53,120 nt of DNA from a virus. Lineage: Duplodnaviria; Caudoviricetes. Location: IMG/VR virus record IMGVR_UViG_3300037485_001022, positions 1 through 53,120 of that record; one strand, 5' to 3'. Numbering within the stretch: position 1 is the stretch's first letter; the number at the start of each line of letters is the position of its first letter. This document shows, one piece after another, positions 5,972 through 51,378 of the stretch. The translations under genes were made by a program, and so were the position numbers. The notes below the pieces were generated by a model, which ran no database searches, was not told the DNA's origin, and was given only the letters and a program-made list of their open reading frames with translations.

Positions 5972-5982
5972 AGGAGGTAGTT

Positions 5983-6483
5983 ATGTTTGACCTGAATCAA
6001 TGTAAACCTGACGATCAGTTAGTAAACCGTGAGGGTACTGTATGTACCTATGTAGGAAGGGATATTGAACATCAAACTACTGTGACCTATCCACACGCAG
6101 TAACCTATCCACACGCAGTAAGTGATAGAGCAGGCACCTTTTGTTTCACGGACAATGGCCGATTTATGCACAATGAGCATGAGAATAAATGGGACATTGT
6201 AGGATTCTATAAGAAGGAACCTGCAAAGCGTGTGCGCAAGCCTAAACCAGTAAACAAACTGCTTGGGCTATGTGAATATGTACAAGAGCAGATAGACGTA
6301 GAAATGTATCACACAGCCGGTTACCTCTATGGTAATTTTTATCTGGATGGAAAGCGGTTTATCTACGGCTATACCTTTAAAACAGCACCTTATGCTGCTA
6401 GTATAGGACTTGTAAACAGTACCCGGCAGATTGTTCACACGCTCAACAACTTCAAAGGCGCAGTAACTAAACTGCGCAAGTAG
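5983..6483 (+). CDS. paralogue family B member (MFDxxxCKxGDxL..[WF]DIVG)
   Basis: N-terminus shared with 7606 and 9593; AAGGAGGT RBS. Confidence 0.75.
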   Translation: MFDLNQCKPDDQLVNREGTVCTYVGRDIEHQTTVTYPHAVTYPHAVSDRAGTFCFTDNGRFMHNEHENKWDIVGFYKKEPAKRVRKPKPVNKLLGLCEYVQEQIDVEMYHTAGYLYGNFYLDGKRFIYGYTFKTAPYAASIGLVNSTRQIVHTLNNFKGAVTKLRK

Positions 6484-6505: not shown

Positions 6506-7603
6506 ATGAACATTCAGTTTCTATCACCGGAACAGTCGCAGCGTGCGCTTGTTCTGAACTGGACGGCAACACTGATTGCTAAGTCCATGAACCTCACCCT
6601 GCGTATCCCTACTGCATTGGTAGGTGATACGGGGTGTGGCAAGACAGATGCAGTACGCGCCTTCTATAAGGACTTGTCAGGTAAGGCCAAGTCTTTAAAC
6701 AAAGTCACTAAGCTGTGGTCTGTGCGTATGTCCCATATCCTGCCGGAGGATTTGGGCGGTTATGCAGCTAAAGATGAGACTACTAAGAAGTTAGTTCATT
6801 ATATGCTGGATTGCCTGCCCTTTGACTGTGAGGATATGGGGGTTATCTTCTTAGACGAGTTTGATAGAGCACCGACTGACAACCAGAACGCCTCTATGCC
6901 GCTTGTCTATGGGGATGATTTTCATGGACACAGTTTAAGTAGTAATGCCTATGTAGTGCTGGCACTTAACGGTTCAGCAGATACCTATACTACTCCGCTT
7001 AGTCAGGCTATCCGTACCCGTGTTTGTAGTCTGTTTGTATCCCGCAATTCAGGTGATGGATATGCGTCATACGAGAAGTGGGCTACTGCTAACGGTATTC
7101 CTGAAGTGGTTAAGATGTTTCACCGTGTCAGTGGAAACCTGATTGCTAGTACCAATGAGTTTACGGAGTTGGCTGTCTGCACGCCCCGTACATTGGACAT
7201 GGCAGGAATGATTACACTGGCGCGTGATCAGATTAATAAGAAGGGAACGCTAGAAATCAATGATGTATACCCTGCCTGCATTGCTGGTGTGATTGGTGCA
7301 CAGGCAGCAGCGCAGTACATTGTCAATGAGCAGATGCTCAAAGACACAAACCCTGAAGATGTAGTTGCACACCCCGATACAGCTAAGATTCCTAGTTACA
7401 CTATTATCAACTATCTTGTGCAGGCGGTTTGTAACATCCTGCAGAATGATGCTGATAGGAATAATAAGGCAATCGGAGTACTGCGGTACATTAAACGGAT
7501 TGAGAATCAGGAATGGGCTAGAATGTTTATGGATAGGATTGGTGATACAGTTCCGTCTATCGTTACTAACCCTGAATTTCAACGGCATATTGCAAGGAGA
7601 TAG
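6506..7603 (+). CDS. MoxR-like AAA+ ATPase
   Basis: Walker A GDTGCGKT, Walker B FLDEFD, sensor TPRT. Confidence 0.85.
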   Translation: MNIQFLSPEQSQRALVLNWTATLIAKSMNLTLRIPTALVGDTGCGKTDAVRAFYKDLSGKAKSLNKVTKLWSVRMSHILPEDLGGYAAKDETTKKLVHYMLDCLPFDCEDMGVIFLDEFDRAPTDNQNASMPLVYGDDFHGHSLSSNAYVVLALNGSADTYTTPLSQAIRTRVCSLFVSRNSGDGYASYEKWATANGIPEVVKMFHRVSGNLIASTNEFTELAVCTPRTLDMAGMITLARDQINKKGTLEINDVYPACIAGVIGAQAAAQYIVNEQMLKDTNPEDVVAHPDTAKIPSYTIINYLVQAVCNILQNDADRNNKAIGVLRYIKRIENQEWARMFMDRIGDTVPSIVTNPEFQRHIARR

Positions 7604-7605
7604 TT

Positions 7606-7971
7606 ATGTTTGACATGAGACAATGTAAGGCTGGCGATAAACTGCTTAGCCGTGATGGGAAAGTATATCTGTTTCAAGGGAAAAGTACTGATCCTGATTA
7701 CCAATATTATGTTATTATACCTAACGTATGGGTGCATACAAGCCGCACAGAACAGGGTAGGTTCTATGTAGGAAAAGAAATGAGTGAGTTTGACATTGTG
7801 GGATTTGCAGAAAAACAATGGAAAGAACTAGTATTGCATATACCCCCGCCCATTAGAGGTGTGTGCAATCTGCTTTGCCCACTAGTTGCACATAAGAACG
7901 AGACCGCATACTGTAAGTTCAGTACAGATTGTATTCGTCCCGGCCCTAGTTGCCCACAGTATCAGGGATAA
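7606..7971 (+). CDS. paralogue family B member with Cys-rich C-terminus
   Basis: MFDMRQCKAGDKLLSRDG..FDIVGF; C-terminal CNLLC..C..C..C. Confidence 0.75.
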   Translation: MFDMRQCKAGDKLLSRDGKVYLFQGKSTDPDYQYYVIIPNVWVHTSRTEQGRFYVGKEMSEFDIVGFAEKQWKELVLHIPPPIRGVCNLLCPLVAHKNETAYCKFSTDCIRPGPSCPQYQG

Positions 7972-9571: not shown

Positions 9572-9592
9572 CTATTACATTATGGAGTAATT

Positions 9593-10072
9593 ATGTTTGA
9601 CATGAGTAAGTGTAAGATTGGGGATAAACTGATAACTCGCGGGGGTACGGGTGCTGTATTTAAAGGGGTTTCTAAATATTGGAGTGAGAAATATCCGTAT
9701 GCAGTACAATTTAATGGGGATGCTTCAATTTACAGTTGTGGGGCAACTGGTATATTTTGGGAAGCAGATATGCTAAGCCAATGGGACATCGTAGGTGCTG
9801 CTGTTGCAGATATTATTAAGTTTAAGCGTGTACGTAAGCCGAAACCTATAGACGATGGCACTAGAATAGCAGCACCCCCTTCTGCATTTGATACGGCACT
9901 CGAACGTGCTATGATGATTTATGTCATTCATAATAGTAAGACTACTACACCCGCCTATATTTGGGTAGCCTATATTAAAGACTGTATTCAGACATTTAAT
10001 AAGGCGATGAAAAGCAGGGATACCTACAAAGGGTTAGACTCTAAACTAATGCGTACAGCGCGGAGGACATAG
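9593..10072 (+). CDS. paralogue family B member
   Basis: MFDMSKCKIGDKLITRGG..WDIVG..KRVRKPKP. Confidence 0.75.
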   Translation: MFDMSKCKIGDKLITRGGTGAVFKGVSKYWSEKYPYAVQFNGDASIYSCGATGIFWEADMLSQWDIVGAAVADIIKFKRVRKPKPIDDGTRIAAPPSAFDTALERAMMIYVIHNSKTTTPAYIWVAYIKDCIQTFNKAMKSRDTYKGLDSKLMRTARRT

Positions 10073-15102: not shown

Positions 15103-15405
15103 ATGAAAGTCCTCCCATATACACCGGGTAAACCCCGTAAGATTCCGAAGGGTACACCATTTGCAGTATACGGCTGTAAACTGGAAAACCCTAACCGTTC
15201 AGTACGGGTTGCCATGATTGGCAAGGGCGATGACCCTAGTGAGGTAGGGCTAGAGTTTAGGATGGAAACACCGAAAGGTGAAACTCAACTAAAGTTTAGT
15301 CTTACTTATGCAGCATTTTGCGCTATGTGGCAATGTGCTAATGCGGCAGGTGCTGAATGGCATAAGCAATCAGTGTTAAGCAAGGTTAATGAAAAGAAGG
15401 ATTAA
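15103..15405 (+). CDS. hypothetical protein
   Basis: AAGGA..TAACTATG start. Confidence 0.65.
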   Translation: MKVLPYTPGKPRKIPKGTPFAVYGCKLENPNRSVRVAMIGKGDDPSEVGLEFRMETPKGETQLKFSLTYAAFCAMWQCANAAGAEWHKQSVLSKVNEKKD

Positions 15406-15409
15406 CGTT

Positions 15410-15841
15410 ATGACTATACTTGAAAGATTTGGGGCAGTTAAGAATAAGGAACTGCGCGGGAAGCTGCGAAAGAACTATAATGAGTGTTTCGCTCGTTCGT
15501 ATGGTATTGCGTTTGATGAGTACCATACAGATAGGGACGCTTTAACTTATGGTTTTTCATGGGCACAAAGTAGTGAGGGAGGTGAGTACTGGCGCGGGTT
15601 GTCTGAGTTATTGCTTACCGACGGTACATTTGACAGAGCGTTTACTGTAATGATGCGTGGTGTACCTGATATGCCTAGCATCCCACCGCCACCACCTAAA
15701 GGCCCACCTAAAGGCAAGGAGTACAGGTATTGCACTAGTAAGAACAATATTATAGTGCAACAGTTTGTTGATAACAAGATGGTATGGAAAGCTACATTCA
15801 CCATTCCTAATTTTATTGCTTGGGCTAAGGAAAACACGTAA
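15410..15841 (+). CDS. paralogue family A member
   Basis: MTILERF..GFSWAQSSEGGEYW; Pro linker; C-terminal GKEY..VWKATF..FIAWA. Confidence 0.8.
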   Translation: MTILERFGAVKNKELRGKLRKNYNECFARSYGIAFDEYHTDRDALTYGFSWAQSSEGGEYWRGLSELLLTDGTFDRAFTVMMRGVPDMPSIPPPPPKGPPKGKEYRYCTSKNNIIVQQFVDNKMVWKATFTIPNFIAWAKENT

Positions 15842-18804: not shown

Positions 18805-18881
18805 GGGCTTGTAGCTCAGTTGGTTAGAGCGTGGGACTCATAATCCCTTGGTCGCAGGTTCGAGCCCTGCCAAGCCCACCA
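18805..18881 (+). tRNA. tRNA with CAT anticodon, Ile2 (lysidine)-type; encoded CCA
   Basis: GGGCTTG/CAAGCCC acceptor stem, TAGCTCAGTTGGTTAGAGC D arm, CTCATAA loop, GCAGG-TTCGAGC-CCTGC T arm, ACCA end; body resembles bacterial Ile2 rather than Met. Confidence 0.92.
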
Positions 18882-21790: not shown

Positions 21791-22903
21791 ATGCAGATCA
21801 ATACCGATAAACCATATAAAATCTTTGCGGAAGTGCTTGAACAGGAAGCGTTAAACCAGTTTGAAAGCGCGATGCAACAGCCATTCGTAGTACGTGGCGC
21901 ATTGATGCCGGATGCACATGCAGGCTACTCACTGCCTATTGGTGCGGTTGTAGCGACTGATGGTGTTGTTATTCCCGCTTGGGTAGGCTATGACATTGGC
22001 TGCGGAATGTGTGCGTTGCCTACAACCTATAATGTGGACTCAATCCGGAGCAAAGGCAAAGAGATTTTCGATGGTATCTACAAGGCTGTGCCTGTTGGCT
22101 TCACGCATAACGCAACAGACTCCGTGTGGCCAGATAGCCGGTATATTCCGCGAACGGCTGTAATGCAGGAGATTTTTGATAAGAACGGATTGAAGCAACT
22201 GGGAACACTTGGGGGTGGAAACCACTTTATCGAAGTAGGGGCAGACGATACTGGCAAAGTTTGGATTGTTATACATTCCGGTAGTCGTGGGCTAGGGCAT
22301 ACTACTGCAACTCACTATATGCGGCTTGCTAGTGGCGATGGAAAGGCGCGTGAGGGACATTTTGGCTTTAGGGTTGACAGTACAGACGGCCAGAACTATA
22401 TTAAGGATTTGAATTTCTGCTTGGCGTTTGCGCTTGAGAACCGATTTGAAATCATGCGTAGAGTTGTTGGTGTTCTTGATTCTGTTGTTACCGGTGAACC
22501 ATATTGGTTTGAACTTATAAATCGAAACCACAACCATGCTGAAATTAAAGATGGGATGTGGATTCACCGTAAGGGTGCTACTCATGCTGAAGTTGGAATG
22601 AAGGGTGTGATACCGGGTAACATGCGTGATGGTAGTTTCATTGTTTGTGGGAAAGGAAATCCTAACGCCCTTTGGTCTAGTTCACATGGGGCAGGGCGTG
22701 TACTTGGCCGCAAGGAGGCTAAGCGTACTTTGAGTATGGATAGCTTTACGGAAACGATGTCTGGTGTTGTTGCGCTTGTGACTGATGACACACTGGACGA
22801 ATCGCCATTTGCTTATAAGGATATTTATAGTGTGATGGCACAGCAAAGCGATATGGTAGAAACGATTGCACATGTGCATCCGATAGTCAATATCAAGGGT
22901 TAA
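21791..22903 (+). CDS. rtcB: RtcB RNA 3'-phosphate/5'-OH ligase
   Basis: MPDAH, GYDIGCG, GTLGGGNHFIE, HSGSRG, HNH, HRKGA, SHGAGR, ESPFAYK, C-terminal IKG. Confidence 0.96.
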   Translation: MQINTDKPYKIFAEVLEQEALNQFESAMQQPFVVRGALMPDAHAGYSLPIGAVVATDGVVIPAWVGYDIGCGMCALPTTYNVDSIRSKGKEIFDGIYKAVPVGFTHNATDSVWPDSRYIPRTAVMQEIFDKNGLKQLGTLGGGNHFIEVGADDTGKVWIVIHSGSRGLGHTTATHYMRLASGDGKAREGHFGFRVDSTDGQNYIKDLNFCLAFALENRFEIMRRVVGVLDSVVTGEPYWFELINRNHNHAEIKDGMWIHRKGATHAEVGMKGVIPGNMRDGSFIVCGKGNPNALWSSSHGAGRVLGRKEAKRTLSMDSFTETMSGVVALVTDDTLDESPFAYKDIYSVMAQQSDMVETIAHVHPIVNIKG

Positions 22904-25641: not shown

Positions 25642-27213
25642 ATGGAGTTAATCATTAAAGATACGGGCATTGATTCCGTAATTGAACGTGATATTATTGA
25701 GAACGCAATCGCTAATGACGAATACCTAAAGCGGTTTGTGCAGGTTCCCCATTGGAAGGGGCTACTCACTACGCAATGGGCTGACGTTGTACTAGCCGCT
25801 TGTGTGGCGTTCTATAAGAATCATAAGGCAGCACCTAAGAAACAGTATATCATTGAGTACCTTAATCAGAATCAAAAGACGTTCCGGTTAAGCGATGATG
25901 TATTGCCTGCAATGGTAGAGTTTATCACTGCCATTGACGAAACCAAGCCTATCAATCCTAGTTTTGAGATTGATAACACGGTAAACTTTCTAAAGAAACG
26001 GGCACTACGCAAGGCTAAAGATAATATTGAAACTGCGCTAGACGCAGATAACCTTGAACTAGCTGAAAAGGCATTTACTTCTATGCCGTCTAAGGTTACG
26101 GCTGTAGACGAACTAGACGTGCTAGATATGGCTTCTACCTTGCAGGAAGCTACTAGCTTAAATGAAGACCCTATCCTGCAGATGGGTGGCCCGTTTGGTG
26201 ATTTAGTTGCCCCACATATTAAATCAGGCAAGTTTGTGTTTTTCCTTGCTACAGCGAAAGCGGGTAAAACATGGTGTCTTTATACACTAGCTGCTGCATG
26301 TTATAATTCAGCAAAAAACGTACTAGTCTTTGCTGCTGGCGATATGGATAAGAATGACAACTCTATCCGTATCGGGCATATCATGTCTAATCAGGATACA
26401 GCATCAGACCCAACACATACAGGTATCTATGCTTTTCCTACTACAGATTGCCTGCTAAACCAGAATCAAACATGTAAACTATCTACTAATAAATGTAAGT
26501 TACAAGCACCTGTTGAAGATTCCATGAAGGAGTGTGATAGTGCAGAGGCACTCATGGCTACCATACCGCCCGGTTACGCCGCTTGTGCCAACTGTCGGCA
26601 TTGCGTGGACTGGGTGCCTACTTTCACCTACGAACCGCATGATGTCCAATATAAGGGTTGGCAGGGGTTAAACGCACACAAGGAGATTAGTAAACGGCGA
26701 AACGGTAAAACTAAGTTTCGTGTAAAAATCTACCCCAACAATACGCTAACTACACAGGAGATTGAACGGCAGTTAATTCACTGTCGGGATAACGAGGGAT
26801 GGATGCCTGACGTTGTAGTTATTGACTATGCCGATATTATGGGTAAAGAAGAAGGTGATAATAGCGTAGAGCAAAGACATAAGGAAAATGCACGATGGAT
26901 GAATTTACGTAAGCTAAGTAATGTTTACCCAATCTGTTTACTTACAGTTACCCAATCCAATAGGTCGGGGTTTGAAGTATCTAGTATTGGCGCAGTACAG
27001 GTAGGTGAAGATAAACGTAAACTTGATCACGCAACTGCCGTATTTAGTCTATCGCAAACACCGCTAGAAAAGCGGTTTAGGATTGCCCGTACTGCCTGTA
27101 TCATGGCACGGGGTAAAAGCCCTGATATTCATAAAGAGGTAGTGTTGTTGCAAGGGTATGAAGCAGGTAGGTTTGTAAGGGGTTCATTTTGGCGTAGGGT
27201 AAAGGAGAAATGA
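25642..27213 (+). CDS. DnaB/gp41-like replicative helicase with Cys-rich insertion
   Basis: Walker A ATAKAGKT, VIDYAD, TQSNR. Confidence 0.8.
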   Translation: MELIIKDTGIDSVIERDIIENAIANDEYLKRFVQVPHWKGLLTTQWADVVLAACVAFYKNHKAAPKKQYIIEYLNQNQKTFRLSDDVLPAMVEFITAIDETKPINPSFEIDNTVNFLKKRALRKAKDNIETALDADNLELAEKAFTSMPSKVTAVDELDVLDMASTLQEATSLNEDPILQMGGPFGDLVAPHIKSGKFVFFLATAKAGKTWCLYTLAAACYNSAKNVLVFAAGDMDKNDNSIRIGHIMSNQDTASDPTHTGIYAFPTTDCLLNQNQTCKLSTNKCKLQAPVEDSMKECDSAEALMATIPPGYAACANCRHCVDWVPTFTYEPHDVQYKGWQGLNAHKEISKRRNGKTKFRVKIYPNNTLTTQEIERQLIHCRDNEGWMPDVVVIDYADIMGKEEGDNSVEQRHKENARWMNLRKLSNVYPICLLTVTQSNRSGFEVSSIGAVQVGEDKRKLDHATAVFSLSQTPLEKRFRIARTACIMARGKSPDIHKEVVLLQGYEAGRFVRGSFWRRVKEK

Positions 27214-27214
27214 G

Positions 27215-27589
27215 ATGACTATACTACAAAGGTTCAAGGCGGTTAAGAATACGACATTGCGGTCTAAACTAGTTAAGAACTATAATAGGGCATACGCAAC
27301 TAGGACAGCTAACACGTATAAGGGTACTGACGGAAGCGCATTACTAAACGGGTTTATCTGGTCTAAGTCGCCGGAAGGATATCCGTACTGGGCTGATTTG
27401 TTCTTTGCTGATGTAGACGAAGGTGCTTCACTAGACCAGATATGGATTAAACTGTATGGTGGGGATTTGAATGCCCGTATTAAGCAACTAGAATCCGCTA
27501 TCCGTAAGACGATTAGGGAAAACAAGTGGTTAGCAGATGGGGAGAACTGCACACTGATTCACCTAAAGAATGTTTTGAAAAGGAAATAA
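27215..27589 (+). CDS. paralogue family A member
   Basis: MTILQRF..GFIWSKSPEGYPYW; C-terminal RIKQLE..CTLIHLKN. Confidence 0.8.
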   Translation: MTILQRFKAVKNTTLRSKLVKNYNRAYATRTANTYKGTDGSALLNGFIWSKSPEGYPYWADLFFADVDEGASLDQIWIKLYGGDLNARIKQLESAIRKTIRENKWLADGENCTLIHLKNVLKRK

Positions 27590-27590
27590 T

Positions 27591-27989
27591 ATGACTATAC
27601 TAGAATGTTTCAAGGGCATTAAGAGTCGTAGACTTCGGCGCAAGTTGCTTAGGAATTATAGCCCGACTTGGTGCGGGATTCCTGAAGCAAAACAAGTAGT
27701 AGCTTCTGATAAATGGGCATTGGAAAATGCTTTCTTTTGGGCAAAATCCTCAGAGGGGCATAACCACTGGTGCGCATTCCGTGATATGTTTATAGAAGGT
27801 GATACATTTGATACTGTATGGAATAGGATTAACTTTACTCATTTAGCTATCCCATCATCGAAACTTAAGCAGAGGATTAAGGTACTAGAGACCGCTATAT
27901 GTACTACACTAAAGGAAAGCAAACATTTAGCGGTTGGAGATGAGTGTACCCTTATTCACCTAAAGAACGCACTTGTAGATAAAACCTAA
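27591..27989 (+). CDS. paralogue family A member
   Basis: MTILECF..AFFWAKSSEGHNHW; C-terminal RIKVLE..CTLIHLKN. Confidence 0.8.
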   Translation: MTILECFKGIKSRRLRRKLLRNYSPTWCGIPEAKQVVASDKWALENAFFWAKSSEGHNHWCAFRDMFIEGDTFDTVWNRINFTHLAIPSSKLKQRIKVLETAICTTLKESKHLAVGDECTLIHLKNALVDKT

Positions 27990-27993
27990 ATCA

Positions 27994-28044
27994 AACAAAT
28001 AAACACGCAAGATCGGCAAGCGAAAATCGTTATCTTATGTAAGG
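27994..28044 (+). promoter_or_regulatory. 51-bp intergenic repeat, putative phage promoter
   Basis: 47/51 identical to 38071-38121; both lie directly upstream of replication genes. Confidence 0.75.
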
Positions 28045-28058
28045 GGAAAAGGGACACA

Positions 28059-28430
28059 ATGAACGCACAAACTATTAAAAACAAGTTGGACGCACTAAGC
28101 AAGTTACAGGAACAAGTTAAAAACGCAAATGACAATTTGACTGAAAGACTTGTTGCGGAATACGGTACTGGTGTACTGTCGGTAATTGTTGATTGGCGTG
28201 CAAACACCACAGCACTATCACAGGTTGTCGCTACACTCGATGCGGAAGTCAAGGAGGCTGTACTTGAACTAAATGAAACGGTATCCGGTACTGACCTACA
28301 GGCTATTCCATGCAAAGGCAAAACATCATGGGATGGTAAGGGACTTACAGGTTATGCAGTAGCACATCCTGAAATTAACGCATTTAAGAAAACTGGCAAT
28401 CCATACGTAATGATTAAGGCTAAGGAATAA
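28059..28430 (+). CDS. hypothetical phage protein, helical
   Basis: 123-aa ORF directly behind the promoter-like repeat. Confidence 0.75.
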   Translation: MNAQTIKNKLDALSKLQEQVKNANDNLTERLVAEYGTGVLSVIVDWRANTTALSQVVATLDAEVKEAVLELNETVSGTDLQAIPCKGKTSWDGKGLTGYAVAHPEINAFKKTGNPYVMIKAKE

Positions 28431-28432
28431 CT

Positions 28433-29437
28433 ATGACTATCAATCGTTTGACTTTACTGACTGCACTCAACACTGTTGCACCTGTTATCGGCCCGTCTAC
28501 TATGGCTATGCTGTCCTGTGTAGAGTTTACGGGCGAACGGATTGTGGCAACAGACCTAGACCGCTTTATCTCTGTGCCATTCGTTACAGATTTCAAGGGG
28601 CTAGTGCCTGCTAAGAAGGTTATTGCTTTCCTAAAGAGCATGACCTCCGAAACCGTAGACATGGCGATTACTGATAACTGTCTAGTAATCAAGTTTGGTA
28701 AGGCGCGTGGTCGCTTTGCTATGATTGAGGGGGAACTGCCTTGGGCTAAGATGGATGATAGCAAGTTAGCACCCTTCCCGTTCGATAGTGATCGGTTTAT
28801 GGATTGCTATGGTGTTACTGCACCCTATATCAGCAATGACGCTACCCGTATGGTTCTGCAAGGTATCTTCCTGTCTGATAAGGATATGGTTGCTACTGAT
28901 GGTCGGCGGTTGTCGCTGGTTACGGTTGGGGAAACTGGTATTGGTAAGGATGTTATCCTGTTGCCCGCCTTCCTTTCACTGGTAAAGGGCGAAACCATTA
29001 CCGAGTATGTTATTGACAATAACTACATTGCCTTCAAAACGGCTACGGGTGTACTGCTTGCTGGCCGTATGATTGATGCTGTGTATCCTAACTACAAGCA
29101 GGTTATTCCTACTATTGATGATACGTACATTGAGGTTGGCTTCCCAGATAACATTAGCGAGTACCTGAAACGGGCGATGCTCATTAATAGTGGTGCTATT
29201 AAGATGGAAGTTAAGGATACTGAATGTACTATTACTGCTAGTAATGAAGAGGGTGCAGACTATACCGAGACTATTCCGGTATCCGCTACAGGTGTAGTTA
29301 CCGTAACTGTTAATCCTACCTTTATGGTGTATGCCTTTAATGTGAATAGCACCCTGCATATATCTAATGCACTTGGGCCTATTGTGTCTAATCGGGATGA
29401 CGGCAAGATTGTTATTATGCCTATGCGTATCTCGTAA
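28433..29437 (+). CDS. dnaN: DNA polymerase III beta-type sliding clamp
   Basis: ATDLD, RMVLQGI, VATDGRRL, YPNYKQVIP, C-terminal IMPMR. Confidence 0.9.
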   Translation: MTINRLTLLTALNTVAPVIGPSTMAMLSCVEFTGERIVATDLDRFISVPFVTDFKGLVPAKKVIAFLKSMTSETVDMAITDNCLVIKFGKARGRFAMIEGELPWAKMDDSKLAPFPFDSDRFMDCYGVTAPYISNDATRMVLQGIFLSDKDMVATDGRRLSLVTVGETGIGKDVILLPAFLSLVKGETITEYVIDNNYIAFKTATGVLLAGRMIDAVYPNYKQVIPTIDDTYIEVGFPDNISEYLKRAMLINSGAIKMEVKDTECTITASNEEGADYTETIPVSATGVVTVTVNPTFMVYAFNVNSTLHISNALGPIVSNRDDGKIVIMPMRIS

Positions 29438-29442
29438 GTTGT

Positions 29443-29536
29443 TGCCCCCGCGCCTCTACCTGCGCAGAGTAGAATACGTGTAATCCGGGTTACACCGCTA
29501 TCTACGTCCGGCAGATGTACGCGTAATTCGGGGGCA
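29443..29536 (+). ncRNA. candidate four-way-junction structured RNA
   Basis: TGCCCCCG/CGGGGGCA closing stem enclosing three hairpins. Confidence 0.6.
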
Positions 29537-29546
29537 CTTTATCTTT

Positions 29547-29659
29547 GACCGCGAGCCCCTAGTCAGCAATGATTATGCTCATAATGGCGACTGGCATGTC
29601 TACCAGTATCGCCCTGTAGACGTACAGGGAATGGTCTATTGACGCCCGTATAGCCGGGC
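29547..29659 (+). ncRNA. candidate multi-hairpin structured RNA
   Basis: Four consecutive inverted repeats within 113 nt of intergenic DNA. Confidence 0.5.
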
Positions 29660-29673
29660 ACTTTGAGGTAATT

Positions 29674-29877
29674 ATGACTACGGAGTTTATTAATAAGGCT
29701 GTTTCGGAAGCTAAGCGATTTATCGCAGCAGCAAAAGCACGGGAAGAAGCGCAAAAAGAAACATGGGGTTCAGGTGATAATGTCTATCACGTTACCGCAC
29801 CCCGCGAGTGTGGGGCATTACGCAGAACGTCTATGGACTTAACACGGGCACTGGCAGTTATGCGCCGGTCTTCTTGA
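29674..29877 (+). CDS. hypothetical phage protein
   Basis: GAGGT RBS; LRRTSMDLTRAL. Confidence 0.7.
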   Translation: MTTEFINKAVSEAKRFIAAAKAREEAQKETWGSGDNVYHVTAPRECGALRRTSMDLTRALAVMRRSS

Positions 29878-29887
29878 AAGGGTGACT

Positions 29888-30061
29888 ATGAGTAACATGT
29901 CTTATTGTAGGTTTCAGAATACGGTACTTGATATGGAGGACTGTATTTCTGTGTTGAATGATTCAGAAGAGTTGTCAGATGATGAGGCTAATGCTAAGGA
30001 TAGGTTGATTCAGTTGTGTATTGATGTTGCTTGTGAACATGGAAAGTGTACGGTACTATGA
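29888..30061 (+). CDS. small phage protein (MSNMSYCRFQNT), 57 aa, below ORF-track cutoff
   Basis: Translated by hand; ATGA overlap with next gene. Confidence 0.7.
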   Translation: MSNMSYCRFQNTVLDMEDCISVLNDSEELSDDEANAKDRLIQLCIDVACEHGKCTVL

Positions 30062-30279
30062 AAGTTATTACAGGTCTAAGTGTGTTGGTTGGTGGTTTGG
30101 TGCTTATCGCTGCGGTTTCACTACTTACTGGTTGGATTGTAGCACTACTGTGGAATTGGCTAGTTCCGGTTCTAATTAAGTCAGCAGTTATTACACCGCA
30201 TATCACATATCTACAGGGTTGGGGCATTGCCTTCCTGTCGGGTATGCTGTTCAAAAGTTCTAATTATAAGACTACGTAA
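30058..30279 (+). CDS. small membrane protein
   Basis: Hydrophobic; LLWNWLVP..ITYLQGWG. Confidence 0.75.
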   Translation: MKVITGLSVLVGGLVLIAAVSLLTGWIVALLWNWLVPVLIKSAVITPHITYLQGWGIAFLSGMLFKSSNYKTT

Positions 30280-30287
30280 GAGTTTAT

Positions 30288-30405
30288 GGGACGATGACGG
30301 TCAGACGATGGGTAAGTGAGACGGCGCAAGAAGTCACCCGTTAATAGTCTTGTCTGTGGTAGTCGGTAAGCGACAGGCCTGAGCAACCGCCGCCGTCATT
30401 GTCCC
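30288..30405 (+). ncRNA. candidate 118-nt structured RNA with 13-bp closing helix
   Basis: GGGACGATGACGG/CCGTCATTGTCCC plus nested internal helices. Confidence 0.62.
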
Positions 30406-30422
30406 CCCTATTTAGGTAATTT

Positions 30423-30749
30423 ATGTTCTCATTAACACCACCCGGTAAGCATATTGTTGGTCGTTACATAACCACATGTAGACTTGCAGAGGCATCTAAA
30501 AACACTACATCATTCAGGTATGAGGTAGCAAGTGCGTTATGTAAGGATACTGCGGAGGTACTTGTAACCGGTAACTTTGTGACTGTTACTAGAGACGAAG
30601 CTAAGTATAACGAGATACATACTATTGACTTCTATGCCATGAGTAAAGATGATTTTGATGCGTGCATTGAAGCCGCTTATACAGCCGGTAGACGCGCAGA
30701 AGCTAATATGAATAGTTGGGCTAGTTTAGCTTCAACAAAGAGTAGGTAA
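30423..30749 (+). CDS. hypothetical protein
   Basis: 108-aa ORF filling the gap before the polymerase. Confidence 0.6.
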   Translation: MFSLTPPGKHIVGRYITTCRLAEASKNTTSFRYEVASALCKDTAEVLVTGNFVTVTRDEAKYNEIHTIDFYAMSKDDFDACIEAAYTAGRRAEANMNSWASLASTKSR

Positions 30750-30755
30750 CTTCCC

Positions 30756-33287
30756 ATGTCTGATTTCCTTTTTGATATTGCGGCAATACAAACTAGTGTC
30801 CCTTCAAAACCACATTGCGGTAAGTGTCCCTTGAGCAATGTTGGTACGAAGTACGACCAGCCGTATAAAATTCAGGAGGGGAATCAGACAGTTTTACTTA
30901 TTGGTGGGGCAGTATCCGATTATGCCCACATGATGAAGGTTCCGGTTACTACCGAGTTTATTAAGCCGATTCTGGATTTGCTAGAAGGTTATACGGTTTA
31001 TTACATTCCGGTAGCGCATTGTGCGGTTGCTAAAGAGCCTATTAGTTACAGTAACCTAGTACATGCTGCAGAATGTTGCTCTTATAACCTGTACCAAACT
31101 ATTAAGCAGCTAAAACCTGACTTTACTGTACTGTTTGGTTCGCCTGCTATTACCGCTATCTATTCTAACCGTTGTGATAAGGGTTGTACGGTTGAGGTGT
31201 GGCGTGGTACCGTAACACCAGATCAGACACTGCATACTAATGTTATCTGCACGTACCCATTAATGGCACCCTGTACTGGTACTGAATCAGGTGTACTGTG
31301 GCGTTACATCCAACAAGACCTTGCACAGATTAAGACAGTAAAGCAGTGGCGCGATTATTCAGATTTGCCTTCTCGTGTCAAGATTATTGCTGATAAGCAG
31401 GTACTGTTTTACCTAGACCGCCTGCATGATGGTAGTGTCATAACATTTGACTATGAAACCACAGGGCTAAAGCCTGATAATAAGGGACATGAGATCGTAT
31501 GTGTATCTGTACGTACTGATATTGATAACTATGCGGTAGTCTTTGAATTAACTGATACCGTACTTCCGAAGTGGAAGCAGGTACTAGCCGACGAAACCAT
31601 TAAGAAGATCGCCCATAACATTAAGATGGAGGATCGGTGGACACGGAAGCGGCTTAAAACACCAGTAAAGGGTTGGATTTGGGATACTTGTATTGGGGCG
31701 CATTGCGTTAATCCGAATAGTGCCAGTGGCCTAAAGTTTCAGGCATTGCTTCAATTTGGTGTGGACGATTATAGCAGGGCAGTACATCATTATCTAGAGG
31801 CTGAAACATCTAACGACTTCAACCGTATCCATAAATGTGATAAGAAACAATTACATGTTTATTGCGGTATTGATTCGTACCTAGAATATGATTTGTACCT
31901 TTACCAGAAGGATACCCTTTGCTCGCGCAGAAACACACTAGGACGGGGCTTTGACTATGGGGTTGAGTTCTTTACCAAGGTAGCGCGTGCCTTTAGCGTG
32001 ATGGAAGGCAACGGCATTGCCATTGACAAGGCGTTAATGGGTGTGTATCTACCGGAAATAGAAGCTAAGCGGCAAGAAGCAATCACACAGTTTAAAACCA
32101 CACCTATCTATAAGGAATGGTATAACATATTCCTGCATACTACCGATTTAGGGTCGGACGTTCAACTCCGTCATATCCTATTCGATGTACTAGGTAATAC
32201 TCCGACAAAGTTTACAAGTAAGGATAAGGAAACAGTTGACGAAGAGGCACTTACTGATTTAGGTATTGAGGGACTAGACTCATATATCCGTGTTAAGAAG
32301 TTCAACAAGATCATAGGTACATACTATGCACAGATTAACAGGGAGATGGATGAGAATGGGTTACTGCATTGCGAGATGCAGTTAAATGCAGCACGGACGT
32401 TCAGGACATCCTGCACTAAGCCTAATCTGCAAAACATCAGTAAGACTGATAAAGAATACGCTAAGTACATCCGTGATTTGTTTATCCCGCAGAATCCTGA
32501 ATGGTGTATTGTAGAAGCGGACTTGAAGGGGTGTGAAGTAGCTGGTGCTGCCTGTCATACGCAAGACCCTAACCTGATAGCATACGTATCTAATCCTAAG
32601 TTGGACATGCACAAGGATTTAGGGGAACACCTCTACAATGTAGACCTAGCACTAATCAGTAAGGATTTGCGGAGTATTACTAAGGGCTATACCTTTGGTT
32701 CTTTCTATGGTAGTTATTGGAAGTTGACAGGGCCGTTTATCTGGAAACAACTACAACTACAAGAGCCTAAGTTGCTAGACGGTAAACCAGTACTTACACA
32801 CTTATCTGACATAGGGATTACAACGGTAGAGGACTTTACTAGGTTGGCGCAGGAAACTGATGATTTCATGTGGAATACACAGTTTCCCGGTTATCAACGA
32901 TGGAAGGAGCGGCAATGGGACAGTTACTTACAACTTGGGTTCGTAGACTTGTATACTGGATTCAGAAGGCCGGGGCCTTTGTCAAGGAATCAGGCGATAA
33001 ATACACCTATTCAGGGGGACAGTGGACACATTAACCTATGGCTCTGCTGTTACATACTATCTAAACTAAAGGACACCGGCATCCGTGCTAAGTTGTTCCT
33101 GCAGATTCACGATAGTGTGGTGGCTATAGTCCACCCTGACGATATAGCGGCATACCGGCAACTGTACATTGATGGTGTTGCTAGACTCCGTGAAATATGG
33201 AAATGGATTATTGTGCCTATTGAAATTGAGTTTGAAGTGTCACCACCCGGTAAATCATGGTTTGAAAAGAAGGAGTATAAAGGATGA
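30756..33287 (+). CDS. polA: family A DNA polymerase with N-terminal UDG-like domain and 3'-5' exonuclease
   Basis: ExoI FDYETTG, AHNIKME, YCGID; RTSCTKPNLQN, motif A EADLKGCE, motif B RSITKGYTFGSFYG, motif C LQIHDS. Confidence 0.92.
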   Translation: MSDFLFDIAAIQTSVPSKPHCGKCPLSNVGTKYDQPYKIQEGNQTVLLIGGAVSDYAHMMKVPVTTEFIKPILDLLEGYTVYYIPVAHCAVAKEPISYSNLVHAAECCSYNLYQTIKQLKPDFTVLFGSPAITAIYSNRCDKGCTVEVWRGTVTPDQTLHTNVICTYPLMAPCTGTESGVLWRYIQQDLAQIKTVKQWRDYSDLPSRVKIIADKQVLFYLDRLHDGSVITFDYETTGLKPDNKGHEIVCVSVRTDIDNYAVVFELTDTVLPKWKQVLADETIKKIAHNIKMEDRWTRKRLKTPVKGWIWDTCIGAHCVNPNSASGLKFQALLQFGVDDYSRAVHHYLEAETSNDFNRIHKCDKKQLHVYCGIDSYLEYDLYLYQKDTLCSRRNTLGRGFDYGVEFFTKVARAFSVMEGNGIAIDKALMGVYLPEIEAKRQEAITQFKTTPIYKEWYNIFLHTTDLGSDVQLRHILFDVLGNTPTKFTSKDKETVDEEALTDLGIEGLDSYIRVKKFNKIIGTYYAQINREMDENGLLHCEMQLNAARTFRTSCTKPNLQNISKTDKEYAKYIRDLFIPQNPEWCIVEADLKGCEVAGAACHTQDPNLIAYVSNPKLDMHKDLGEHLYNVDLALISKDLRSITKGYTFGSFYGSYWKLTGPFIWKQLQLQEPKLLDGKPVLTHLSDIGITTVEDFTRLAQETDDFMWNTQFPGYQRWKERQWDSYLQLGFVDLYTGFRRPGPLSRNQAINTPIQGDSGHINLWLCCYILSKLKDTGIRAKLFLQIHDSVVAIVHPDDIAAYRQLYIDGVARLREIWKWIIVPIEIEFEVSPPGKSWFEKKEYKG

Positions 33288-33663
33288 CTATTGAACAACA
33301 CAAGGCTCTTACATCCACAGGTGGTACTAGTATTTACCTAACTGGTGGTGAAGTCGCTACCGCGATTATAGCATACTTAGCAGCACACTCTATCACTGTT
33401 CGTGGGCCGCGTACTATTACAGTTAATCATGAACTGTGTGATATTGGTAAGGTATACGTTGACCCGTCAGGGGCTGTATACGATAACAGGGGGCAGGAAT
33501 GAAAAAGTTTTGGAATAATGTAGGTTTGTGGTTTGCCTATATTGCAGTTGTGGCTTTGGTTGTAGGTTTGATTGGTGGTTGTGTGGCAATCAAATGGAAT
33601 GTTTATCATCAGCGGTTTCCTAATGCGTCACCGTGGACGTTCTTGTTTAAGTAAAGGATAATT

Positions 33664-35065: not shown

Positions 35066-35605
35066 ATGACAGAGTTTGTTGCTTTTCAAAAAATACCAAG
35101 ACTCTCCCGTGACTGTTGCATTACTGAAAAACTCGACGGCACCTCAGGTTGTATTTTCATTGGCGAGGACGGTGAGTTTCTAACAGGTAGTCGTAACCGT
35201 TGGATTACACCGGAAGATGATAACTATGGTTTCAGCCGTTGGGCACACGCGCATAAGGACGAGTTAATGCAACTTGGCCCCGGTAGGCACTTTGGTGAAT
35301 GGTGGGGTCTAGGTATTCAGCGTGGATACGGCGCACCTGATAAGCGGTTTAGCCTGTTTAATACCGCAAGATGGAATGCTGAAACACCACCGCCTGCTTG
35401 TTGTTCAGTAGTGCCCGTGTTGTATACAGGGTTATTTTCCTCTTATGTAGTTGAAATGCAACTAGATTACTTAAAAGCTAATGGCAGTAAGGCAATTCCG
35501 TTTATGAATCCTGAAGGTGTTGTTGTATACCATTGTGCTGCACGTACTTATTTCAAAAAGACCATAGTCGGGGATGAATCACCAAAGGGGAAACGGGATG
35601 AGTAA
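35066..35605 (+). CDS. Rnl2-type ATP-dependent RNA ligase (nucleotidyltransferase core only)
   Basis: ITEKLDGT, GSRNR, FGEWWG, EGVV, YFKK. Confidence 0.82.
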   Translation: MTEFVAFQKIPRLSRDCCITEKLDGTSGCIFIGEDGEFLTGSRNRWITPEDDNYGFSRWAHAHKDELMQLGPGRHFGEWWGLGIQRGYGAPDKRFSLFNTARWNAETPPPACCSVVPVLYTGLFSSYVVEMQLDYLKANGSKAIPFMNPEGVVVYHCAARTYFKKTIVGDESPKGKRDE

Positions 35606-37674: not shown

Positions 37675-38070
37675 GTATGAAAGACGAGAAAATTAAGTGT
37701 GATAACTGTAAGAAGGAAATTACCTTTCCTGCTATCATTGGACTAACAGCTACATTCAGAACCCGTACTGGCGTAAATAGGCCAATGGGATATACGCAAT
37801 TTGAGGTAGAGAATAGGGACTTCTGCGACCTGCGGTGTCTAGAAGTGTGGGTAGAACAAAAACATAAAGAAAGTTCGCGTGGTTACTCTAAAGTGGACCC
37901 TTGGGATAGGACGGATTTGTGATATGACGTTATTCCTAGCAATCTGGTTTACATTTGGTTTGTTTACTGTAGGACTGGCACTAAACCCCACAAAGAACAC
38001 GTTTGTAGAGTGTCTAGTGACTTTCCTATTTTGGCCTTTAATTTTGGGGGGATTTTTACAAGACCAATCT

Positions 38071-38121
38071 AACAAATAAAAGCGCAAGATCGACAATCGA
38101 AAATCGTTATCTTATGTAAGG
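38071..38121 (+). promoter_or_regulatory. 51-bp intergenic repeat, putative phage promoter
   Basis: 47/51 identical to 27994-28044. Confidence 0.75.
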
Positions 38122-38697: not shown

Positions 38698-38860
38698 GGG
38701 ATAAATATGACTAAACTACAAAAAGCTAAAATCAAGTATGCAGACGCTGCTCTACGTTATAATGAAGCGACACAAGTTACTAAGGAGGCTGAACAGGAGC
38801 TAGACTCTGCAGCCGCCGATCTGTTTGCAATACTTGAATCTACCGACGAACTGTAATCTC

Positions 38861-38888
38861 ACATAACAACTAAAACATAACAACTAAA
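38861..38888 (+). repeat. 14-bp tandem repeat (ACATAACAACTAAA x2) in G-free ssb leader
   Basis: Directly visible. Confidence 0.9.
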
Positions 38889-38907
38889 CACTAAAGGCTA
38901 AACTATT

Positions 38908-39789
38908 ATGACTATCATGGAAAGAATGCGTGCATCAGCTAAGACACAGATGGAAGGTGGCGGTGGCAATCAGTTTAACAAGGCGTGGAAAGCTAAGAAG
39001 GGAACACCGAATCTAAAGATTGTACTGACACCACCTGACGGGCAGCGTACAAATATCCGCATTGTGCCGTATGTTGTAACGAATCCCCGTAATAATCCCG
39101 ATTGTGAAGAGATTGGTTCACAGTGGTACAAGCGGCGTTATTGGGCGCACCGTATCGGCCCTACTGGTCAGGAAGTCCGTGTTCCTTGTCTTATGCGTAA
39201 CTTTGGTAAGCCTTGCCCTGCTTGTAGCCTTGTCGCTAAACTGAAAGCGGAAGGTGTTGACAAGAAGGTTTATGAGAACCTCTGGGCTAGGGAGCGTGAG
39301 TTGTTTAATGTTTACGACCACAATGACAAGACACTCAAACTGATGGATGTCAGTACGCATCTGTTTGGTAAGAAGTTGCTCCAAGAGGCTAACGATCCAG
39401 AAAACATTAAGGAAGGGTCTGAGAACTTCGTCAACCCGTGTGCTGGTGGTGTGATGCTATCATGCCGGTTTGATGCAGGTACGTTTGCCAAGAGCGTGCA
39501 GCTTGGTTCAGTGAAGTTTGTTAAGGCTAATGCTATTCCTAAAGAAATTATGGATAAGGCGGAAGACCTTGACGCTATCCTTATTGAACTTAGTGCGGAA
39601 GAGATTGAGCGCATTATGGATGGGGCTATCACCACAAAGGCAGAGGATACAGTGTCACCTGACTTTGATGCACCACCTGTAACTGCAACGACACCTCCTG
39701 CTAAGACGGCAGTTGTGCCAAAGGCAACACCATCCGTTGAACCAGAGGGTGCAGTTGCAAATGCCCATGCTGATGACCTAGACTTCTAA
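38908..39789 (+). CDS. gp32-like single-stranded DNA-binding protein
   Basis: RIVP, H..C..CPAC zinc ligands, low-complexity linker, acidic tail DDLDF. Confidence 0.8.
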   Translation: MTIMERMRASAKTQMEGGGGNQFNKAWKAKKGTPNLKIVLTPPDGQRTNIRIVPYVVTNPRNNPDCEEIGSQWYKRRYWAHRIGPTGQEVRVPCLMRNFGKPCPACSLVAKLKAEGVDKKVYENLWARERELFNVYDHNDKTLKLMDVSTHLFGKKLLQEANDPENIKEGSENFVNPCAGGVMLSCRFDAGTFAKSVQLGSVKFVKANAIPKEIMDKAEDLDAILIELSAEEIERIMDGAITTKAEDTVSPDFDAPPVTATTPPAKTAVVPKATPSVEPEGAVANAHADDLDF

Positions 39790-39796
39790 CATCTCC

Positions 39797-39846
39797 GGTG
39801 CAACCGTATGGTTCCTCCCCCACCTCCTTCCCCATACGGTTGCACC
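39797..39846. other. perfect 15-bp hairpin with C-rich anti-Shine-Dalgarno loop
   Basis: GGTGCAACCGTATGG / CCATACGGTTGCACC; loop TTCCTCCCCCACCTCCTTCC. Confidence 0.85.
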
Positions 39847-41309: not shown

Positions 41310-41370
41310 GGGGCTGGTATTCCCTTTGCTGATACAGGTTGCCTAGCTGTTCTAAGGTAGGCGCAGCCCC
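41310..41370 (+). ncRNA. candidate small three-way-junction RNA
   Basis: GGGGCTG/CAGCCCC closing stem with two internal hairpins. Confidence 0.4.
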
Positions 41371-41379
41371 TTTTATTAT

Positions 41380-41452
41380 TGCGGGATATTGTAATGGCAG
41401 CATGACTGGCTTATAACCAGAGTCAGTGAAGGTTCAATTCCTTCCCCCCGCA
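41380..41452 (+). tRNA. atypical or degenerate tRNA with TAT anticodon (Ile-UAU)
   Basis: TGCGGG/CCCGCA acceptor, CTGG-CTTATAA-CCAG anticodon arm, GAAGG-TTCAATT-CCTTC T arm; imperfect acceptor base and no CCA. Confidence 0.62.
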
Positions 41453-50641: not shown

Positions 50642-50990
50642 TCCCGGAACTGATGCAGCTATCAAACAGGGGTGCACCTGCCCCATTATGGATAACAAGG
50701 ACTTACCTAAAAACATCTATATGGTAAGTAAAGATTGCCCTGTCCATTGCCCCAAGACTAAAAGGGTATTCGTAGTAAACGAGGAGTAATATGAGTGCTG
50801 TACGTGAAGAAATACTAGTTGAACTTAAAGCTATGGCGCGTAGATGGAAACGTGCCTGTGGTGGTGCCGGTGGTGCTTGTTGTCAGCAACAAGACATGAA
50901 TATACGTGCGGATGCGGCTAGACGAACTTGCGCTAAAGAACTAGAAGCATTTATACTGGCTAATAGTTAATATCTACTAACGTAAACAGA

Positions 50991-51025
50991 AAAGCCCCTT
51001 ACAGTACTTCACTGTAAGGGGCTTT
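50991..51025. terminator. bidirectional intrinsic terminator between convergent blocks
   Basis: AAAGCCCCTTACAGT-acttc-ACTGTAAGGGGCTTT with A-rich and T-rich flanks. Confidence 0.88.
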
Positions 51026-51048
51026 GTTATTGGTCAGCGTGTGAACTT

Positions 51049-51378
51049 TTAGGCTTCGGGTGCGACTTCAGTAACAGGATCGGTTGTAGTGAAACGGACA
51101 GTGAATGTTACGGATGCTGTTTGTGTAGTATCGCTTACGGTTGTAGTACGTGCAATAGTCATCTTAGCAGGTAGGTCAGTAGTTAGTGCCTTGTAATTGC
51201 CATAGATACCGTTTAGTAGTGCGTAGATGATTTTACGGCTATCACCAGTAGTGGGGGCAGCTTCTACGGATGTTAGGTCAGTAAAATCAGCAATAGTAAT
51301 TGTAGCAGTAGTACTATCGGCGGTATAGTGATCGCCTAATAGATGATTGTCTGAGGGGTTTAGGTCAAAAGCGGCCAT
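51049..51378 (-). CDS. Thr-rich hypothetical protein, possibly virion-associated
   Basis: 109-aa ORF; AGAGAG-ATAACCT-ATG start on - strand. Confidence 0.7.
   Translation of the reverse strand: MAAFDLNPSDNHLLGDHYTADSTTATITIADFTDLTSVEAAPTTGDSRKIIYALLNGIYGNYKALTTDLPAKMTIARTTTVSDTTQTASVTFTVRFTTTDPVTEVAPEA

Follow-up and report, generated by a model that had tools for sequence, protein, structure and literature searches.

The interval between the sliding clamp and the DNA polymerase gene of an uncultured phage contains a GC-rich element of 118 nt that, judged from its sequence, belongs to no known RNA family and is single-copy and lineage-restricted. Tentatively, we read this element as a structure that acts in cis within the replication-operon mRNA, as a leader or between cistrons, and not as a separate gene. 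We infer that it would be transcribed within that mRNA, be processed and affect translation. Support for this reading comes from the predicted fold, which is autonomous and strand-specific, from the position of the element as an island of high GC content, from a conserved block of nucleotides around it, from the structured start of the adjoining polymerase gene, and from structured spacers at the equivalent place in relatives. The reading is weakened by the lack of homologues, by a stability that GC content explains, by a closing helix of a length expected by chance, and by the absence of the element from the six closest related loci.

The DNA analysed here (the window) is IMG/VR record IMGVR_UViG_3300037485_001022, taken whole, with 53,120 bases and an estimated completeness of 62%. 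It carries an uncultured phage's module for replication and nucleotide metabolism, with genes for a helicase, primase, tRNA-Met, RtcB, methyltransferases, a DnaB-like helicase, the sliding clamp, a family A polymerase (PolA), an Rnl2-like RNA ligase, clamp loader, single-stranded DNA-binding protein (SSB), exonucleases, a UvsX-like recombinase, SbcCD and RusA. The tRNA-Met gene lies at 18805-18881, RtcB at 21791-22903 (PF01139, 3.4e-88) and the short Rnl2-type RNA ligase domain at 35066-35605 (PF09414, 1.2e-11). Nearly all genes of the window, and all neighbours of the element, are on the + strand (Table 1). The element is preceded by a small open reading frame (p77) that varies between strains and has only a weak match, to a PHROG without known function, and is followed by a second one (p108), for which domain and PHROG scans gave no family match and IMG/VR no relatives. 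PolA carries a 3′-5′ exonuclease domain (PF01612 at 2.3e-7) and an N-terminal domain that weakly resembles uracil-DNA glycosylase (UDG; PF03167 at 0.0068, below the cutoff). Among cultured phages, tblastn found no polymerase more than 23% identical to PolA, the best identity being 23%.

Table 1. Coordinates of the element and of neighbouring features in the window
Feature	Coordinates	Strand	Basis or remark
Sliding clamp	28433-29437		
p77, 77-aa ORF upstream of the element	30046-30279	+	phrog_705, E 3.5e-4
Conserved block: 5 nt, the element and CCCTATTTAGG, including Shine-Dalgarno (SD) AGG	30283-30416	+	contigs of runs X2 and X21
Structured element, 118 nt	30288-30405	+	sequence; RNAfold minimum free energy (MFE) structure = centroid
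Direct repeat TAGGTAA, left copy	30413-30419	+	bounds the p108 cassette; contains SD
p108, 108-aa ORF between element and PolA	30423-30749	+	dispensable cassette
Direct repeat TAGGTAA, right copy	30743-30749	+	p108 stop codon and SD of PolA
PolA, family A DNA polymerase	30756-33287	+	PF00476, 2.9e-41
Second closed RNA domain, 134 nt, inside PolA coding sequence	30757-30890	+	predicted fold

RNAfold predicts that the + strand of the element forms a three-way junction, closed by a helix (P1) and bearing a GCAA-capped arm, with a free energy of -47.2 kcal/mol (z -3.37; 1 of 200 dinucleotide shuffles was equally good). The original prediction had described a 13-bp terminal helix with one G-U pair, which is indeed in the sequence: GGGACGATGACGG (30288-30300) pairs with CCGTCATTGTCCC (30393-30405), and an additional U-G pair extends P1 to 14 bp (30288-30301/30392-30405, two G-U). 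The inner pairings listed there (AGAC/GTCT, GATGGGT/ACCCGTT, GAC/GTC with a C-GCAA-G cap, and GTCG/CGAC or GTCTGT/ACAGGC) are likewise all present. In the predicted structure they make up P2 (5 bp, CAGAC/GTCTG, 30302-30306/30352-30356), P3 (7 bp, 30307-30313/30336-30342) and an apical 3-bp stem (30320-30322/30333-30335), below whose GCAA loop (30326-30329) sit two G-A oppositions. The side arm P4 combines 30358-30360/30377-30379 with the GTCG/CGAC pairing at 30362-30365/30371-30374, and GTCTGT/ACAGGC is a competing pairing. Bulges of 6 and 9 nt and a 12-nt joining strand complete the RNAfold structure. The 5′ bases 1-26 are paired without a break, yet to three separate partners (P1, 14 bp; P2, 5 bp; P3, 7 bp), and P1, P2 and P3 could therefore stack into one rod. 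As modelled, the fold is autonomous and + strand specific: the helices persist in a fold of the longer segment 30270-30900, where the pairs of P1 average a probability of 0.99, and the reverse strand reaches a z of only -1.26. With DNA parameters, the z values are -2.48 for the + strand and -1.38 for the - strand.

The statistical weight of this fold was assessed against the window itself. Helices of at least 13 consecutive pairs with a span of 60-160 nt occur twice per window strand, against a mean of 0.9 in 30 dinucleotide shuffles, and a closing helix of such length is expected about once per strand by chance. By MFE, the exact 118-nt window of the element ranks 12th of 5300 in raw terms and 206th of 5300 after regression on GC, so that its stability is largely explained by GC content. 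A z-scan of the window with RNALfold did not list the element at z < -2, and many coding stretches reached below -5. The GC content of the element is 57.6%, whereas the window averages 43.2%; among 118-nt windows, just 0.2% are equally GC-rich. The element occupies 118 of the 143 nt between the end of p77 and the start of p108, which bears out the earlier description of a GC-rich element nearly filling its gap. The energetic evidence is only moderate, and the GC island together with conservation between strains is the stronger evidence.

Searches of RNA families agree with the earlier impression that the element belongs to none of them. At gathering score, Rfam 15 gave only two tRNA matches in the whole window (18805 and 41381) and none at the element; at E ≤ 10, the only match within 30200-30500 was SNORD115 on the - strand, with 15.5 bits against a gathering score of 39. 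ARAGORN called one tRNA-Met in the window, at 18805, and nothing at the element. For the six related loci described below, Rfam gave 0 matches at E ≤ 1 and ARAGORN likewise nothing.

Several specific identities were considered and rejected. No Rfam 15 model for SRP RNA, 6S RNA, Y RNA, known ribozymes or riboswitches matched the element, and a tRNA or tmRNA identity has no support, ARAGORN and the Rfam tRNA model both being silent there. A bacterial Y RNA of the YrlA type is disfavoured by the lack of an Rfam match and of a TROVE gene among the ORFs scanned in this 62%-complete record. A retron ncRNA does not fit neighbours such as p77, p108 and a family A polymerase, with no reverse transcriptase family among the 47 ORFs scanned. 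Nor is the element an intrinsic terminator: the helix is followed by CCCTATTTAGG instead of a U tract, and the sole terminator-like site within 28000-33500 is at 32679. Inspection by eye against consensus features showed no fit to a K-turn, a hammerhead core, an 11-nt tetraloop receptor or attC-like ends. Kinship with the 5′ region of PolA was also considered, because GGTAAGTG and TGAGCAA are common to both, and the local alignment was not significant.

The original prediction had called for a collection of homologues, which yielded no diverged relative. The element has no significant similarity to the rest of the window and contains no ORF. A search with blastn in 'distant' mode for homologues among 50,697 phage records gave no match. 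PolA as a single query found no relatives in IMG/VR; a PolA alignment led to 182 PolA-relative loci (80 from IMG/VR, 80 from metagenomes and 22 from genomes). About nine of these are close (44-62% identity), six of which keep sequence upstream of PolA, and the element is absent from all six. BLAST and nhmmer with the element left no trace in 160 PolA-relative loci, and a covariance model of the element and its fold (R1) found the element alone in 100 + 83 sources. IMG/VR was also scanned for exact matches to three segments of the element, with 0, at least 119 and 9 matches, which amounts to none or to chance level, and R1 gave only noise (17.7 and 14.8 bits) on 89 loci fetched by exact 15-mers. 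At one locus with a p77 relative (L312), a promoter-like spacer is in place and R1 did not find the element, and pairwise comparison of clamp-to-polymerase spacers revealed nothing that ties the element to relatives. Since no diverged homologue is found among the loci reached, the fold is a prediction without support from covariation.

Conservation is apparent at the strain level. Parts of 29400-31000 occur in 24 public runs from 13 studies, and contigs were compared from three DNA runs (X2, X4 and X10) and one metatranscriptome-library run (X21); the evidence is drawn from these four runs and from the positions that their contigs cover. One X2 contig (record 12) has 1 difference in 134 nt over 30283-30416, and one X21 contig (record 15) has 1 difference (C>T) in 130 nt over 30283-30412; to judge from loose-end letters at 30421, the latter is most likely C30406T, just outside the helix. 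By comparison, coding DNA next to the element differs by 4-17% between strain-level relatives. The upstream flank in X2 (30195-30312) is present as two alleles with 10 and 4 differences, and p108 in X2 has 22 differences in 328 nt. The depths of the two alleles, 38 and 18.7, sum to roughly the depth of 59.4 of record 12, so that the two X2 strains apparently have a single copy of the block in common. In X4 and X10 there are 30 differences in 654 nt (29885-30538) and 19 in 536 nt (29877-30412), respectively, over spans that include the element and are not split by part. The flank rates predict 4-20 changes per 118 nt; under a Poisson model, finding no more than one change in 134 nt has a probability between 0.05 and 2e-9, according to the flank rate chosen. 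Evidently, as far as these contigs indicate, the element is under sequence constraint; recombination that spreads one block among strains could instead account for the high conservation.

The borders of the conserved block coincide with places where genes are exchanged. Conservation sets in abruptly, 3 nt past the p77 stop codon, with letters unlike the window before 30283 in X21; in X2, yet other letters precede 30743. Contigs of X10 and X21 join 30412 directly to 30743, with 7 letters that fit either side, and thereby drop 330 nt, namely p108, between the two TAGGTAA copies. In these strains the element ends 20 nt before the ATG of PolA. The element and its SD sequence are thus a fixed island between exchangeable cassettes. 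This pattern bears on the view that the element is a functionless GC-rich remnant, such as acquired DNA or a decayed gene fragment, with a fold that is a by-product of composition and a conservation that reflects a recent sweep or recombination. Such a remnant would account for the unremarkable GC-corrected stability (rank 206 of 5300), for the one helix of this kind expected per strand by chance, and for the absence from all more distant relatives. We consider it improbable nonetheless, given near identity in at least two studies against 4-17% divergence of the flanks, the sharp boundary after p77, the lack of an ORF or of similarity to the rest of the window, and the strand asymmetry of the fold.

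Fixed stem-loops between shuffled genes have a precedent in phages. Promoter-early stem-loops (PeSLs) are cassettes of T4-type phages (PMC2839356, PMC4122927), and PeSL-like sequences have been reported also in the plastic region of the DNA polymerase gene g43 (PMC2839356). By analogy, PeSLs are the nearest described concept for a conserved block of stem-loop and SD sequence between shuffled ORFs. Like them, the element is a conserved intergenic block of about 100 bp with a G/C-rich stem-loop that ends in the SD sequence of the next gene, and it borders small variable ORFs that are gained or lost between close relatives (PMC2839356). In contrast to the element, a PeSL is a simple hairpin with a strong sigma-70-like promoter, and each genome contains many of them (PMC2839356); the element has no promoter-like site within 30200-30450, is found by R1 only as itself in the window, and is predicted to form a 118-nt three-way junction.

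The PeSL precedent also lends some plausibility to a role at the DNA level, in which the RNA fold would be incidental and the element would be either a recombination linker for cassettes or a binding or initiation site in replication, for instance a single strand folded into a signal. On either side the cassettes vary around a fixed block, a 7-nt direct repeat bounds p108, the block sits in the replication module between clamp and polymerase, the + strand folds with DNA parameters as well (z -2.48), and T4-type PeSL stem-loop cassettes mediate shuffling (PMC2839356). We nevertheless give this explanation little credence. PeSL-type exchange is excluded for the element, because a single copy in 53 kb leaves no second copy to pair with, and the repeat at the p108 joint is a 7-nt ribosome binding site (RBS) motif and not the element. 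Moreover, the opposite strand has A-C mismatches in place of the four G-U pairs and folds weakly (z -1.26 with RNA and -1.38 with DNA parameters), and an inverted repeat of 13 bp with a 92-nt spacer would be unlikely to extrude in duplex DNA.

The transcription signals around the element are relevant to whether it is part of an mRNA or a gene of its own. A scan of 28000-33500 found 8 sigma-70-like promoter sites against 11.8 expected, with none at 30200-30450, and no promoter-like or terminator-like site flanks the element. A contig from the X21 metatranscriptome library (188 nt, depth 3) starts 17 nt upstream of the element, spans it and extends over the first 41 nt of PolA; as a contig in an RNA library it shows no RNA ends and does not prove transcription. 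Of 29400-31000, only the element and short flanks are represented in X21. A cis-acting structure fits better than a separate gene because promoter and terminator signals are lacking on the flanks, the conserved block includes the SD sequence, and the RNA-library contig is continuous with coding sequence.

A stand-alone, trans-acting ncRNA of a new family is accordingly less likely than a cis-acting part of the mRNA, and on its own terms we regard it as unlikely. Such an RNA would be released by cutting of the operon transcript or arise from an unrecognised phage promoter, and its target would be a protein or RNA of the host or the phage, with RtcB and the Rnl2-like ligase as possible partners. 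It would suit the compact closed fold with its GNRA loop and three-way junction, the conservation above that of the flanking genes whatever these are, the lack of an Rfam family, the restriction of X21 coverage of this region to the element and its short flanks, and the presence of RtcB and an RNA ligase in the phage. It is at odds with flanks that lack promoter-like and terminator-like signals, with a library contig that runs on into PolA, with a conserved block that takes in a downstream SD sequence for which a free RNA has no need, with a scan of 47 window ORFs that revealed no gene for Ro/TROVE or another known RNA partner, and with a single, lineage-restricted copy. In a more far-reaching form, which seems to us quite doubtful, the element would be the founding member of a new class of structured phage small RNAs, a closed three-way junction with a GNRA arm that stays nearly invariant as the surrounding genes are swapped, cut from the operon transcript and acting in trans, for example as a decoy or cofactor linked to the RNA-repair enzymes of the phage (RtcB and the Rnl2-like ligase) or in anti-defence. 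The original prediction of an unassigned phage ncRNA therefore survives in part: the missing family, the strand-specific fold, the conservation and the RNA-library contig are in keeping with it, whereas there is no sign of a separate gene.

The structure of the PolA start adds to the case for a cis-acting element. A helix of 19 bp (30757-30775/30872-30890, four G-U), whose first base is the second of the PolA start codon, encloses a domain with a predicted free energy of -50.6 kcal/mol (z -6.31; 0 of 200 shuffles equally good; pair probability 0.98-0.99), which in these models is far stronger than the 118-nt element. As predicted, the helix should block direct initiation at PolA; the p108 stop codon lies 6 nt upstream, which suggests translational coupling of p108 and PolA. 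In the arrangement without p108, about 20 nt that include the SD sequence and AUG are predicted to remain single-stranded between two closed domains. Five relatives do not preserve the 19-bp helix as such, and in one relative (L082) a helix of 11 bp covers its own SD sequence and AUG.

The clamp-to-polymerase interval is structured in every close relative, by differing sequences. In L003 and L084 it contains a spacer of about 150 nt, two hairpins of which recur in the window at 29560-29676; among the three sequences, 10 of the 19 predicted pairs are doubly changed in a compensatory manner. This two-hairpin leader follows the clamp gene (L003:4862-4998 and L084:418-538; the polymerases of the three phages are about 50% identical) and has loops of the form CATGTCTA/AATGCTTA/AATGATTA and TANAGC. 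It stands directly before PolA in L003 and L084, and before a 67-aa ORF in the window. L083 has a multi-branch element of 150 nt (965-1120) with a 10-bp closing helix and two hairpins with loops like the tRNA T-loop (GGTTCGA); it has no Rfam or ARAGORN match, and its first 24 nt are identical to L111:4025-4048. In the window, a GC-rich hairpin closed by GCCCCCG/CGGGGGC lies directly after the clamp gene (29443-29537). Part of its interior is swapped in X2 for 30 other letters (joint 29457->29521), and X10 contigs meet unlike letters at nearly the same two places.

Following the cis-acting reading, the element would be co-transcribed with the clamp, the small ORFs and PolA, and would fold by itself into a closed three-way junction in which P1, P2 and P3 may form a single stacked rod of about 26 bp. 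The element ends 7-10 nt before the SD AGG of whichever gene fills the slot ahead of PolA, the slot gene being PolA itself in strains without p108. By analogy with the RNase III sites of T7 and the operators of T4 genes 43 and 32, we take its role to be that of an intercistronic insulator and a processing or stability element, which would provide a stable end after an endonucleolytic cut and possibly a double-strand-specific (RNase III-type) site. It may also be one wall of a short single-stranded landing pad for ribosomes, the other wall being the 19-bp helix at the PolA start, and between them the two walls would keep polymerase translation low or under regulation. In a variant of this scheme, the element would be the binding site of a phage replication protein that exerts autogenous control.

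RNase III sites of the T7 type are single irregular hairpins of about 50-60 nt between genes, and an RNase III site should offer about two turns of near-continuous double-stranded RNA. The element resembles them in its intercistronic position directly before the RBS of a gene for replication or transcription, in its presumed transcription within a polycistronic mRNA, and in what may be a long imperfect duplex if P1, P2 and P3 stack. Unlike them, it has the side arm P4 and large bulges, and is at most a candidate cleavage site. For T4 gene 43 the operator takes the form of a small hairpin overlapping the SD region, and the leader of gene 32 contains a pseudoknot. As in these operators, a structured RNA is placed just upstream of the SD sequence of a replication gene, with 20 nt to the PolA start where p108 is missing. 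In contrast to T4 gene 43, the polymerase is of family A and not B, and in the window p108 separates the putative operator from PolA. The autogenous case of T4 gene 32 is also mentioned in a survey of 8,495 intergenic structured-RNA candidates from IMG/VR, the source collection of the element itself (PMC10690425). That survey, which may already list the element, places 879 of all its candidates within 25 nt of a start codon, and the word 'polymerase' has 0 occurrences in its main text (PMC10690425).

If the cis-acting reading is correct, a lineage of uncultured phages from sediments and lakes controls or insulates the expression of its DNA polymerase by two large RNA structures that bracket a ribosome binding site, and a structure of this kind can stay fixed while adjoining genes are swapped. 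At present the value of the element is that of a lead, as one lineage-restricted case. The wider pattern may be more useful, namely a structured clamp-polymerase spacer in every close relative, in one instance with covariation.

Other features of the window were recorded in the course of this analysis. A 56-nt intergenic repeat (27989-28044 and 38066-38121) is 91% identical between its copies and ends in TAAGG just upstream of two genes on the + strand, as a candidate for a phage promoter or a regulatory cassette. Two families of diverged repeats (15397-15481, 27202-27286 and 27578-27662; 5978-6057, 7601-7680 and 9588-9667) both cover the RBS and first codons of small ORFs, which indicates paralogous small genes. 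At 1908-2294, 18 tandem units of 15 nt lie within overlapping ORFs on both strands and would encode a pentapeptide repeat if coding. A weak tRNA-like sequence at 41381-41452 (36.8 bits with the Rfam tRNA model, not called by ARAGORN) follows a branched, GC-rich hairpin located at about 41310-41370. The SSB-like gene (38908-39789) has a long, largely unstructured A/C-rich leader (38698-38907) and is followed at 39797-39846 by a perfect 15-bp hairpin with a C-rich loop of 20 nt and no U tract. Finally, at the junction of + strand and - strand genes, a strong predicted hairpin (AAAGCCCCTTACAGT...ACTGTAAGGGGCTTT, 50956-51054; z -7.5 on one strand and -6.3 on the other) resembles a bidirectional terminator.
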